Positions 22,166-52,370 of a stretch of DNA of 64,000 nucleotides are shown piece after piece. The notes beneath the pieces were generated by a model. It had not been told where the DNA came from and made no database searches. It saw nothing but the letters and a program-made list of their open reading frames with translations. Numbering within the stretch: the first letter of the stretch is position 1; each line of letters begins with the position of its first letter. Both the position numbers and the translations under genes were made by a program. The DNA is from Eledone cirrhosa (lineage: Eukaryota): NCBI GenBank assembly GCA_964016885.1, contig OZ024744.1, forward strand, positions 43,772,001 through 43,836,000. Reading direction: 5' to 3'.

Positions 22166-22197
22166 TGGTAACCCTGACGTGATACGAACACGCAGCC
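22166..22197 (+). promoter_or_regulatory. Extended tRNA-Trp primer-binding site
   Basis: TGGTAACCCTGACGTGAT-A-CGAACACGCAGCC versus the reverse complement of a metazoan tRNA-Trp 3' half as recalled (TGGTGACCCCGACGTGAT-T-CGAACACGCAGCC). Confidence 0.85.
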
Positions 22198-23559
22198 GTT
22201 CATCGCTATAAGTGGTCACCCCCCCCCCCCCAAAAAAAAAGAAAAAAATAGCACATCTGGTTTTGTGAGTAACATTACGAATACACAGCAAATTTAGCGA
22301 GAAACTATGAAAATACTCAAGGACACGTACATGTGGAATTCGCACAGACATACTTTTTCTCTCACGCATCCATTAACTGTCGCATTTCACCAATATATAT
22401 ATGTTTCTCGTTTCTTACAACGAACACTTTCAAAACAAAAAAAAAACAAAAAAACATTTCACGATATATATATATATGTTTCTCGTTTCTTACAACGAAC
22501 TCTTTCAAAACACACAAAAAAAAAAAAGAAATTTGATATTCTTTAAAAAACATTTCAACAGGAACATTTATTTTCGATGAACCTTTTTGTTCATCGTTTT
22601 CTTCATCGTTCAAGTTTTTTGTTTTTTTCCAAAGTTCACACCAATAATTATGCTGAGTGAAGCCTTTCTTTTTCATCATTGTCACTTTCAAAATTGCACT
22701 ATCATTTTCTCGCGCGTTAGAAATATTATTTTTTTCAACCTTGTATTGGCACGTGTAGGCAGCACAAATTCTCGATTCACAGAGATGTCTCTACACACAG
22801 ACATAGCCGCACGCCAGAGATAACATTTCTCGCCAAGGATTCTTCAGCCTTAAGCTATATTCTTCTATTTGCCGGTTTATAAATTTACAATGTAAATTTA
22901 CCGTTGATAACCGCGCATTTATTAAGAATGCTTATTTCTCTGGTCACTGGCCTCTTGACCCTTCCAGGTCAACGCATTCTCAACATCGACCATCAACTTC
23001 GGCTGCTATTTCTAGCACTTTGCGCAACTCATTTTTTCTAAAAAAAAAAAAAATTTTTTTTTTTTTACTGTGAATTTAAACACCGAATACGCTCACTCAG
23101 CGAGACAACAGCAGCAGCAGCAGCAATACATCAACACAGCTTCACCAACAACCAGCAGAACGCCAGAGAATTTATTTTTGCAGCACTCTCCCTGTGAGAA
23201 AATCCATTCGGAGGTTGGAAATTTCACGATATACCACAGAACAGAGACCACCTGCATTCATTCTCTGGAACACACTTTCTTTCCTGCTGTCATGTGATTG
23301 CACACCTGTGAACTATATTTTGTACATTTGAACTTTGAGCTCTTCTATTACTTTTACTTTATTACATTGTATCTTTGGGTGATGGATAGATGGATGTCCA
23401 GTCGTTCTCTGGCCAAGAGCGGTTGGCTACCTTGATATCTATCATTGATTTTTCCAAACATTCTTTTGTCGTAATTTTCATGCCTGTTACAACATTCTCG
23501 CCAACTTGTTACATATTTTCATTTCGATTTTTATACACTAAAATTCTGGCGGGAGGTTA

Positions 23560-23911
23560 TGTAGCGGTTGTCTCCCTTGTTTTGATTGGGATCTAGACGG
23601 GAAGTAGAACCCTTTCTGCAACTTCCGGTCAGAGCCCTATAAAACTAACAACTTTAAGCTTTCTAACTCTCATTGCCTTTTCGGTACCAGGTCAAGAGCC
23701 TCTCATTGGGCTCTGCCATTCATTTGGCCAACAGGCGCCTGGCCTTAGCCAGGCGTCCTCTGCCAGCCACCATTGCCTGGCAATCAAGGTCATCTGCATC
23801 ATCCTCATCTTTGACATGTCAACTATACTATCCACCATTGTTAATTAAATATTATACACACAAACCATGTCTCGTTTTGTTACATTCATACAACCCAGTA
23901 ATCTCGCTATA
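23560..23911 (+). repeat. 3' LTR of element 1 (352 bp)
   Basis: Direct repeat of 21791-22164, followed by TSD GAGG and resumed satellite. Confidence 0.92.
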
Positions 23912-26900
23912 GAGGTAACATAGGGTGGTGTCTATCATAGAGGTAATATAGGGTGGTGTCTAATATAGAGGTAACATAGGGTGGTGTCTAGTATAAAAGT
24001 AATATAGGGTGGTGTCTATCATAGAGGTAACATAGGGTGGTGTCTATTATAGAAGTAACATATTGTGGTGTCTAATATAGAGGTAACATATTGTGGTGTC
24101 TAATATAGAGATAATATAGGGTGGTGTCATTATAGAGGTAATAGAGCGTTGCGTCTAATATAGAGAAAACATAGGGTGGTGTCATTATAGAGGTAACATA
24201 GGGTGGTGTCTAATATAGGGGTAAGATATGGTGGCGTTAAATATAGAGGTAACATAGGGTGGTGTCCATTATAGAGGTAACATAGGGTGTTGTCTAATAT
24301 AGAGGTAATATAGGGTGGCGTCTAATACAGTGGTAAGATAGGGTGGTGTCTAATATAGAGATGACATAGGGTGATGTCTAATATAGAGGTAACATAGGGT
24401 TGTGTCTATTATAGAGGCAATAAAGGGTGGCATCTAATACAGAAGAAACATAGAGTGGTGTCTATTATACAGGAAACACGGGGTGTTGTTTAATATAGAG
24501 GTAATATTATAGAGGAACATAGGGTGGTGTCTATTATAGACGTAACATAGGGTGGTGTCTAATATAGAGGTAACATATTGTGGTGTCTAATATAGAGGTA
24601 ATATAGGGTGGTGTCTAATATAGAGGTATTATATGGTCGTGTCAATTATGGAGGTAACATAGGGTGTTGTCTAATATAGAGGTAATATAGGGTGGTGTCT
24701 AATATAGACATAACATAGGGTAGTGTTTAATATAGAGGTAATATAAGGGGGAGTCATTATAGAGGTAACATAGGGTGGTGTCTAATATAGAGGATTTATA
24801 GGGTGGTGTCAATTATAGAGGAAGATAGGGTGGTGTCTATTATAGAGGTAACATAGGGTGGTTCCTATTATAGAGGTAATATAGGGTGGTGTCAATTATA
24901 GAGGAAGATAGGGTGGTGTCTATTATAGAGGTAACATAGGGTGGTTCCTATTATAGAGGTAATATAGGGTGGTGTCTAATATAGAGGTAACATAGGCTGG
25001 TGTCTAATATAGAGGTAACATAGGGTGGTGTCTAATATAGAAGTAATATAGGTGAGGTCTATTGTTGAGGTAACATAGGGTGGTGTCTTATATAGAGGTA
25101 ACATAGGGTGGTGTCTATTATAGAGGTAATATAGAGTGGTGTCTAGTATAGAGGTAATATAGGGTGGCGTCTAATACTGAGGTAACTTAGGGTGTTGTCA
25201 AGTTTACAGGTATCATAGGGTGGTGTCTATTATAGATGTAACATAGGGTGGTGTCTAATATAGTGGTAATATAGGGTGGTGTGTATTATAGAGGTAACAT
25301 AGGGTGGCGTCTAATATAGAGGTAATATACGGTGGCGTCTAAAACAGAGGTAACATAGGGTGGTGTCAAATATAGAGGTAACATAGGGTGGTGTCATTAT
25401 AGAGGTAATATAGGGTTGTGTCTAAGATAGAGGTAACGTAGGGTTGTGTCTATTATAGAGGTAATATAGGGTGCCATCTAATACAGAGGAAACATAGGGT
25501 GGTGTCTAGAATAGAGGTATTATAGGGTGGTGTCTATTATAGAGGAAACACAGGGTGTTGTTTAATATAGAGGTAATATAGGGTGGTGTCTAATATAGAG
25601 GTAACATAGGGTATTGTCTAATATAGAGGTAATATAAGGGGGAGTCATTATAGAGGTAACATAGGGTGGTGTCTATTATAGAGGTAATATAGGGTGGTGT
25701 CTATGATAGATGTAACATATGGTGGTGTCTAATATAGAGGTAACATAGGGTGGTGTCTAGTATAAAGGTAATATAGGGTGGTGTCTATAATAGAGGTAAC
25801 ATAGGGTGGTGTCTATTATAGAAGTAACATATTGTGGTGTCTAATATAGAGGTAACATATTGTGGTGTCTAATATAGAGATAATATAGGGTGGTGTCATT
25901 ATAGAGGTAACATAGGGTGGTGTCTAATATAGAGGTAATATATGGTGGCGTCAAATATAGAGGTAACATAGGGTGGTGTCCATTATAGAAGTAACATAGG
26001 GTGTTGTCTAATATAGAGGTAATATAGGGTGGCGTCTAATACAGTGGTAAGGTAGGGTGGTGTCTAATATAGAGATGACATAGGGTGATGTCTAATATAG
26101 AGGTAACATAGGGTTGTGTCTATTATTGAGGCAATAAAGGGTGGCATCTAATACAGAAGAAACATAGGGTGGTGTCTAGTATAGAGGTATTATAGGGTGA
26201 TGTCTATTATACAGGAAACACGGGGTGTTGTTTAATATAGAGGTAATATTATAGAGGAACATAGGCTGGTGTCTATTATAGACGTAACATATTGTGGTGT
26301 CTAATATAGAGGTAATATAAGGTGGTGTCTAATACAGAAGTAAGATAGGTTGGTGTCTATTATAGAGGTAACATAGGGTAGTGTCTAATATAGAGGTAAC
26401 ATAGGGTGGTGTCTATTATAGAGGTATATAGGGTGGTGTCTATAATAGATGTAACATATGGTGGTGTCTAATACAGAGGTATCATAGGGTGGTGTCTAAT
26501 ATAGAGGTTATATAGGGTGGTCTCCAAAATAGAGGTAACATAGGGTGGTGTCTATTATAGAGGTAACATAGGGTGGTGTCTATTATAGAGGTAACATAGG
26601 GTGGTGTCTAATATAGAGGTAAGATAGGGTGGTGTCTAATATAGAGGTAACATAGGGTGTTGTCTATTATAGAGGTAACATAGGTGGTGTCTATTATAGC
26701 GGTAACATAGCGTGTTGTCTATTATAGAGGTAACATAGGGTGTTGTCTATTATAGAGGTAACATAGGGTGGTGTCTAATATAGAGGTAACATAGGGTGGT
26801 GTATAATATAGAGGTATTATATGGTCGTGTCAATTATAGAGGTAACATGGAGTGGTGTCTAATATAGAGGTAACATAAGGTGTTGTCTAATATAGAGGTA

Positions 26901-51009: not shown

Positions 51010-51340
51010 ATATATATGTCCTACCTTTAGCAAGGTAGGACTTAAGGTAGAGATGGAACCCAATAGAAAAATAGTGAATTTCCTGGACACCACCCTCAAC
51101 CTCAACACCAAGCTACACCACCCATATCATAAACCCAATGAGAAGCTGGTGTATATCAACGCTGAGTCTAATCACCCTACATCTATAGTTAAGGCCGTAG
51201 TTAAGAGTGTCTCTGACAGGATCTCTAACTTGTCGGCTAATAAAGAGATATTCAATAGTAACGCTGATTACTATAACTCAGCGCTACCTAAGGCGTCCCA
51301 CAGCCATAGGATCAGCTATAACCCTAAGGGACATGATCAA
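51010..51340 (+). pseudogene. Penelope-like RT C-terminal fragment
   Basis: KIVNFLDTTLNL...PYHKPNEKLVYINAESNHP...RISNLS...YYNSAL in ORF 50912-51361; homologous to 49013-49520 (-). Confidence 0.85.
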
Positions 51341-52334
51341 GATGACCCAATCGTTATCTAATGTTTAAAACATAAATAGCTGCGATATATGCACCATATC
51401 AATCAAAAACGATATGAGAATTGAATACCATACTAAAGCGCCAGTAAGCTTGCTAAGAATCTGCAGGTAGAAATTTTAATAAATACAACATTTGGCTTGG
51501 GTAAACTTTAAGATGTTCTTTCATTGTAGGTTTCTTTTCTCAGCCAGTACGTTAAAGAAAATTGATAGTTACAACAATAAAGGTTGAACAGAGAACACAT
51601 TTTTTTAACAAACTTTACAATAATTTGTACAACCATAAATTACATTGTTAGAGCCTCAGAGTATACAATATTTTTTGTTCGGACCTCGAGAGCAAAGATG
51701 AAGAGATTGTTTGGCAAGCTCACTCTAGAGCATCCTACATACAATTGATCTTGTTTTTCCCAGATGAAGACCAGCCACTTTTAGGGTTTGACCCTGAGCT
51801 TTGTTGATGGTAATCGCGAAGCTTAGTCTCTCTGATCTTGCGGCCAGGCTAGGACTTTTTGGGTGGCATATCGGCAGTAACAATGACGATAAGCCGTCTG
51901 TGCTTTCGTGAAATAAATACGTTTGTTTATATTTTGTTTTTGTGTATGCAAAAATATCCGTACACGAATATATAATTATATATATATATATATATATATA
52001 TATATATATATATTAAAATAACAGATTACAGTTTAAACAAAGAATCGGTGCTTTCACCCTTAACAGGATTGTAGTGGCTGAGATGGTCGCTTGGCAACTA
52101 GCAGTTGCCTCCCCTTAACAACCCTTCAGAGAGCGGAGGCAAAAATACATCCCGACACAGACGCAGGTTCACTCACTCTCTTTGGACCGCGGACATGAAC
52201 AGACGTGGAAAGATTCGCTCCTCAAAATATTGACGTTGTAGGAAATTTACTAATTTATCGCATTTAATAAAATGATTGTTAGATTTGTTTGTTCATTTAT
52301 TTATTCAACAAAGAGAAACATCCCTTTCCTTTAT

Positions 52335-52370
52335 TGGCGACCCTGACGATAAAGAATGAAAACGCAGCCT
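52335..52370 (+). promoter_or_regulatory. tRNA-Trp PBS plus ACGCAGCCT box
   Basis: TGGCGACCCTGACGAT...AACGCAGCCT, 1 nt after the LTR. Confidence 0.8.

Follow-up and report, generated by a model that had tools for sequence, protein, structure and literature searches.

Three LTR elements and the box behind their primer sites

We analysed a 64,000-nucleotide stretch of the Eledone cirrhosa genome (GenBank assembly GCA_964016885.1, contig OZ024744.1, positions 43,772,001 to 43,836,000 of the forward strand), called the window below; all coordinates refer to it. The window is AT-rich animal sequence with three long terminal repeat (LTR) elements, A, B and C, and our subject is a short word, the box ACGCAGCC, that each carries behind its primer-binding site (PBS). 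The box was found three times in the 64 kb, both strands included, each time 23-28 nt into a tRNA-Trp PBS beside a 5' LTR. An earlier description (the initial annotation) had placed it behind the PBS at 22190-22197 (+), 35665-35654 (-) and 52362-52370 (+), and we found it there and nowhere else.

Pairing was computed against a piece of tRNA-Trp found in another assembly (locus L120, assembly G001), which is numbered back from A76, covers tRNA 38-76 and is not the host's own gene. The 18 nt on its PBS side equal the Rfam consensus for the PBS of Rous sarcoma virus (RSV; RF00467), and the PBS cores of A, B and C all match it. The box complements tRNA 45-52 of this piece, i.e. the variable loop and the 5' strand of the T stem, in agreement with the initial annotation, which was also right on the tRNA-Trp identity. 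Since L120 has U47, which makes a G-U pair with the box of the window, a C47 variant was computed too.

Element A (21791-23911, +) is non-coding, 2.1 kb long, and lies in a 28-bp satellite with the target site duplication (TSD) GAGG. Its 5' LTR (21791-22164) and 3' LTR (23560-23911) are the same at 346/352 aligned positions. The PBS (22166-22197) was found to be a continuous, in-register 32-nt complement of tRNA-Trp 76-45 with three differences, at 22170, 22175 (a G-U wobble) and 22184 (facing tRNA position 58), which are PBS positions 5, 10 and 19; the box, at 22190-22197, is its 3' end. Just past the box, at 22202-22222 (+), the last 8 LTR nt and a PBS-like word are repeated, resembling a second LTR-PBS junction.

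Element B (36237-33499, -) is likewise non-coding, is 2.7 kb long and lies in satellite, with an apparent 5-bp TSD, AGACA. Its 5' LTR (35697-36237) and 3' LTR (33499-34043) agree at 512/539 positions. The PBS core (35676-35687, -) consists of 8 paired nt, a 2-nt bulge and 4 paired nt (predicted duplex -19.7 kcal/mol) and is followed, past a 10-nt A/T-rich spacer, by a 12-nt exact complement of tRNA 52-41 (35654-35665, -), of which ACGCAGCC is the part at 35665-35658. A second tRNA match, an 11-nt complement of tRNA 50-40, was found near the internal 3' end (34176-34186, -), about 130 nt before the 3' LTR. It was equalled by 31/1500 shuffles and is suggestive only: it may be a Ty3-like 3' site or chance. 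Within the LTR of B there are also two PBS-like motifs that lack a box, one at 35837 and one at 35723 (-), with copies at 33642 and 33527, and the spacer of the motif at 35837 resembles that of C. The LTR-PBS junction itself looks duplicated, with 9 nt separating the LTR end and the PBS. The LTR may have grown by taking in old LTR-PBS junctions.

Element C is the coding element. Its 5' LTR (52070-52333, +) is the same as the 3' LTR (56973-57236, +) at 258/263 positions, and the TSD is GGAT. A 14-nt PBS core with one mismatch and one wobble (52335-52348, +; predicted duplex -24.0 kcal/mol) is separated by a 13-nt A-rich spacer from a 9-nt exact complement of tRNA 52-44 (52362-52370, +), with ACGCAGCC at 52362-52369. 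A broken gag (52903-53426, +) encodes a CX2HX9CX3C (CHCC) knuckle at about 53334-53387, which reads CWYH-9-C-3-C. It is followed by a pol (53440-56546, +) with a protease-like DTG motif, reverse transcriptase (RT), RNase H and integrase, the C-terminus of the last being in another frame (55839-56546). Pfam gives the order RT, RNase H, integrase, and the protease was recognised from the DTG motif alone.

The CsRn1 clade has been defined by a tRNA-Trp PBS, a CHCC Gag and a 4-bp TSD, as described in passages of PMC2582038. C has all three traits as well as the protease, RT, RNase H, integrase order of the clade; A, which like B is without gag, has the PBS and the TSD, and the TSD of B looks 5 bp long, inside satellite. 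Among proteins, C matched best to unnamed sequences at 53-62% identity and to gag-pol of flatworms or nematodes; on our RT trees, which contain no named CsRn1 sequence, flatworm and nematode gag-pol were also its nearest named proteins. We read the three as related CsRn1-type Gypsy LTR elements.

We then asked how far the tRNA match extends beyond the core. The longest exact matches there were 12, 12 and 9 nt for A, B and C, equalled by 0, 0 and 2 of 5000 shuffles, and each of the three boxes keeps the register of the tRNA or comes close to it. A chance coincidence might be argued from there being only three elements, mutually related; however, the shuffles refute it for the match itself and 3/3 occurrences in 64 kb follow a PBS, so that we give chance next to no weight. 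Eight 8-mers are common to the three non-coding internal parts and the box alone stands at the same position in each. Local folding gave inconsistent accessibility for it (unpaired 0.96, 0.28 and 0.56).

The three LTRs could not be aligned with one another (local scores 18-21 vs shuffle means of 18-20), as the initial annotation had held. Its description of the spacer as completely different had to be given up: the spacer of A is in-register tRNA complement, and those of B and C both contain AAGAAT. B and C also have in common a leader block of 22 nt and, ahead of the 3' LTR, a block of 59 columns, and over the last 70 internal nt all three pairs beat shuffles (equalled by 1, 1 and 0 of 1000). 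These shared blocks indicate that A, B and C form one divergent sub-lineage and are not three independent witnesses. As A is continuous over 32 nt, the bipartite signal first described for all three elements holds for B and C, which are split, and not for A.

The 28-bp satellite occupies 34-21790, 23900-33488 and 36250-45439, about 40 kb within 34-45439, and the orientation of the array flips across element B. Neither A nor B, both inserted in it, has an open reading frame (ORF) of 150 aa. A CAG-rich leader tract is present in all three elements (23100-23130, 35470-35490 and 52830-52860). Long inverted repeats were observed at 47584-48030, 49836-50797 and 58664-59025, for example with 181-nt arms at 98% identity and no loop; they are probably miniature inverted-repeat transposable elements or foldback elements, and give weak, below-threshold Rfam miRNA matches. 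Two similar ORF fragments without a Pfam match, which we take to be Penelope-like, and a fragment of a non-LTR reverse transcriptase (RVT_1) lie at 49013-49630 (-), 50891-51361 (+) and 61451-62227 (+). Searches of the window with ARAGORN and Rfam turned up no tRNA.

Continuous, decayed and split primer sites in other hosts

The tRNA piece used as reference is itself a candidate first form of the site. L120 (1495-1533, G001:C523) is a 39-nt 3' half of tRNA-Trp (38-76) with CCA, perfect-looking, that ends just before position 37. tRNA-Trp carries a blocking modification at position 37. L120 lies about 1.7 kb upstream of BEL/Pao ORFs (Peptidase_A17, DUF1759), and no LTR pair was found around it. 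It was the sole match to a tRNA-Trp gene pattern across 22 assemblies.

In the same assembly, L136 holds an in-register copy whose middle has decayed, with mismatches at 6/11 of positions 9-19 vs 0/15 at 20-34 (Fisher p=0.002, boundaries set afterwards). L075, which has gag-pol and an LTR 85% identical to that of L136, has lost 4 spacer nt and kept a 14-nt box. The boxes of both read ACGCAACC, corresponding to the U47 of L120, all within G001; in the window, C47 is implied by the copy in A, and the box of B and of C reads ACGCAGCC. In L125 (assembly G018) the core is 10 nt long, and the box match, likewise of 10 nt, lies upstream of gag and runs into the ATG. L091 has a core as in C, and the PBS complement of L004 extends to 24 nt. 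The base facing A58 is not T in three of the four sites that run through the T loop (A, L004 and L136) and is T in L120, which fits either misreading or relaxed pairing at an unpairable base. Two further sites in G001, L135 (G001:C516:570-597) and L131 (G001:C380:20038-20060), resemble a PBS with a box-like word behind it; neither has a protein match, and both are possible non-coding elements. Taken as a sequence series, the continuous copy (L120), the middle-decayed copy (L136) and the split forms (B, C, L075 and L125) suggest how the box originated.

To place these sites among relatives, we used searches that returned 68 + 50 + 1 loci (119), of which 96 were examined, short fragments and prokaryotic matches being left out. 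A Trp PBS was present no more than 1 kb upstream of the match in 57/96; these collapsed to 45 families, one assembly accounting for 13. The usual in-register PBS complement was 13-14 nt, and an exact match of at least 9 nt to tRNA 38-56 was found in 1/45 families (0.09 expected). Box-bearing rows were scattered on the RT trees (quick and FastTree trees): there were 3 label changes among the labelled rows of one, which left out L095 and L101, and 4 forced by well-supported branches in the other, which also left out L085 and L287. Such scatter implies either recurrent origin or many losses. With ARAGORN, no tRNA-Trp was detected in these 119 loci. In viral contigs, the tRNA-complement pattern gave 0 matches and one distant relative was present.

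Several candidates were rejected. GAACAYG in L029 and L046 ends on the ATG that opens a reading frame, as judged by eye, and GCAGCC in L006, L065 and L067 did no better than shuffles. The 102 PBS-plus-box matches in viral contigs were taken as chance, none having a tblastn match to two gag-pol probes. Several prokaryotic genome bins (L070-L108; assemblies such as G001, G002, G009 and G018) hold contigs with animal-type LTR retrotransposons, likely as host contamination.

Proposed origin and role of the box

Our preferred reading, which we hold to be reasonably probable, is that the box belongs to a Ty1-like extended PBS, which would have been acquired when reverse transcriptase read through the primer past position 58 and would have been retained as a second contact with that primer. 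In the normal course the plus strand stops at 1-methyladenosine 58 (m1A58), which is present in tRNA-Trp, and minor products stop at the modified position 37, according to passages of PMC13191261, which describes both stops for retroviral primers, and of PMC8599865. A rare plus-strand strong-stop product that copied the primer too far, to about position 38, could have been fixed behind the LTR, giving a continuous site like that of A. The part facing the T loop, where m1A58 and other modifications pair poorly, would then have decayed and changed in length. Annealing of the core would open the acceptor and T stems; with the spacer looped out, the tRNA 44-53 thus freed could pair with the box, which is why we propose that core and box were the parts retained. 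Where the core is short or mismatched, such a contact would stabilise the primer, and as it lies behind the primer 3' end, we propose that extension would not require it to melt. The ORF-less A and B would be mobilised by C-like elements.

The split forms have weaker predicted cores: for B, C, L075, L125 and L091 the core duplex is put at -17.8 to -24.0 kcal/mol vs a median of -28.1 across the 43 families that lack a box (p=0.0014 by Mann-Whitney; p=0.0044 when each host contributes one), a comparison weakened by a box class defined post hoc and by classes that are not phylogenetically independent. The predicted gain from the box was about -14 to -23 vs a median of -10.6 for box-less leaders, and the box in B and C is predicted to help a weakened PBS hold its primer.

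Several further observations weigh against the preferred reading. The exact box was found in 0/45 relative families, so that most relatives do without it; it was found within one mismatch in 4/45 (about 1 expected), and a duplex at p<=0.05 in 4/45 (about 2 expected). Two of the 43 box-less families reach an equal predicted gain (-18.6) without an exact box, and others have equally weak cores (e.g. L003, -17.6, and L071, -19.2). The match in L091 is a weak one of 7 nt (149/5000 shuffles), and that in L125 runs into the context of the ATG, where a Kozak function is a confounder. The matching T faces A58 in three shorter extensions (L014, L025 and L248). The targeted pattern gave 17 matches vs 16 for the control over 22 genomes, with 5/17 in an LTR, gag or tRNA-copy context; the pattern being at chance level overall, L125 and L136 were picked by context. 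The matching of the box letter to the host rests on two hosts, neither with its tRNA gene seen, and the variants considered for the A family are 40 of 52. The box is not lineage-wide. The initial annotation had seen it as conserved in a CsRn1-like lineage; the CsRn1 type stands, and conservation gives way to the 0/45 families and scattered RT branches.

The same data bear on a neutral explanation, in which the box would be a functionless remnant of a captured tRNA copy, shared by descent, and a single spacer replacement in the B-C ancestor made it look bipartite. The copy in A is continuous, B and C are related and have spacer letters in common, at least 43 of the 45 relative families have no box at all, and the predicted gain overlaps that of box-less families, all as expected of such a remnant. 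On the other hand, the box is exact though the LTRs and most of the leader have diverged past alignment, the loss of the middle with retention of the box recurs on separate branches, and in L136 and B the mismatches cluster in the middle. We regard a neutral relic as a minority possibility.

Reads of four sequencing runs from the host species were placed on 21990-22217 of element A, which proved to be high-copy; the host tRNA-Trp gene was not among the matches listed. About one fifth of the copies carry the tRNA-matching letter, 17/84 reads at 22170 and 18/78 at 22175 (the 17/84 from run X7), which fits a host tRNA-Trp that shares its acceptor end with L120. No variant fell inside 22177-22203 among those listed (40 of 52), so that A at 22184 is the majority state, suggesting that the primer copy is not routinely re-inherited. 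The same is stated for Ty1 and Ty3 in passages of PMC5371799.

These reads are relevant to a role in plus-strand transfer, where the box would be a landing pad that lets strong-stop DNA extended past m1A58 anneal and complete replication, with no part in initiation. A similar argument has been made for retroviral complementarity up to position 54 (in a passage of PMC8599865), and L120 ends at 38, beside the likely second stop. Such a role should restore the tRNA sequence, yet at 22170 and 22175 some four fifths of the copies of A still show letters that differ from the tRNA, and the spacers of B and C have not been restored; the box ends also vary (tRNA 41, 42, 44 and 45), with no single stop. 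We consider this role improbable.

Slightly less probable still is another cis role, the tRNA match being a matter of history only: the box could have been co-opted for packaging, for dimerisation, for base pairing inside the RNA of the element itself or as start-codon context. Each element has one GGCTGC able to pair with part of the box, but this internal partner is just 6 nt long and stands at unrelated places. Likewise, the box of L125 abuts the ATG, whereas in A, B and C it lies hundreds of nt from any gag start; moreover, the box letter tracks the tRNA variant in two hosts. There is a precedent, since a passage of PMC3592414 reports that one proposed tRNA box of Ty1 proved to be a cyclisation element.

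Returning to a captured and retained second contact, we tentatively extend it to a general route, which we think rather unlikely to hold as a whole: secondary primer contacts would recur by overrun of m1A58, copying to the block at 37, fixation, T-loop decay, retention of the box and weakening of the core. If true, animal genomes hold a fossil series (misreading at 58, stop at 37) that would explain how contacts of the Ty1, Ty3 and PAS (primer activation signal) types originated.

Relation to known primer contacts

We found no prior report of the box in the open-access literature; subscription papers and image supplements, among them the PBS figure of PMC2582038, which may bear on novelty, lay outside this scope. 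CsRn1, PwRn1 and AgCR resemble the present elements in the tRNA-Trp PBS, CHCC Gag and 4-bp TSD, but the text passages of PMC2582038 say nothing of a second match to the tRNA (the PBS alignment of that paper being an image outside the same scope). The miniature elements of Helenus/TRIMp3 carry a tRNA-like promoter inside their LTRs, according to a passage of PMC10886601, and A, B and C do not: ARAGORN and Rfam detected no tRNA, the internal parts are 1.4-1.7 kb long and the tRNA match lies outside the LTR.

Other elements are known to have fixed tRNA sequence at this place. BEL-type Cer elements of C. elegans have long tRNA copies at the PBS. In cqgypsy_1 of Culex, mature tRNA sequence with CCA is fixed behind the 5' LTR, although there it consists of two whole tRNAs between a duplication (passages of PMC3286476).

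In yeast Ty1 and Ty3, additional contacts with the primer are an established feature; for human immunodeficiency virus (HIV) and RSV they are a matter of debate, and their origin is not settled. Going by the position of the HIV-1 PBS, the PAS lies on its 5' side. One sentence in PMC3185550 places it 'downstream'. The PAS of HIV-1 and the U5 contact of RSV are 8-nt contacts with the T-arm region of the primer, which in RSV is also tRNA-Trp (passages of PMC3185550; RF00467), and our box shares with the PAS its complementarity to the 5' T arm (tRNA 45-52). It differs in location: the PAS is at nt 123-130 and the RSV contact in U5, whereas the box lies 3' of the PBS, continues its register and is absent from all LTRs. 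The PAS-like character first ascribed to it is therefore withdrawn; the box is no PAS, since that signal sits at the opposite side of the PBS.

Ty3 is, like A, B and C, a Gypsy-group element, and it pairs with its primer at two places, by way of the primer's acceptor stem and T arm (passages of PMC5371799). Its second site is about 4800 nt away in U3, while here the box is 10-13 nt behind the core.

The closest likeness in layout is to Ty1, where a short acceptor-stem core (a 10-nt PBS) is combined with downstream tRNA contacts, boxes 0 and 1, across a loop (passages of PMC3592414 and PMC5371799). B and C have this layout of short core, loop and downstream tRNA-complementary box, and the continuous A does not. 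The box arrangement is not a new kind of system, and most relatives are without it. Ty1 is a Copia-group element of Saccharomyces that uses tRNA-iMet and whose contacts were probed; here the elements are animal, Gypsy-group and CsRn1-type, use tRNA-Trp, and have contacts predicted from sequence. PBS annotation that stops at 18 nt misses part of the signal. A further difference from Ty1 is that a series from continuous copy to split site is visible here, with continuous, half-decayed and split members side by side, some of them within a single genome, which makes both the origin and the function of the second contact testable with short RNAs.

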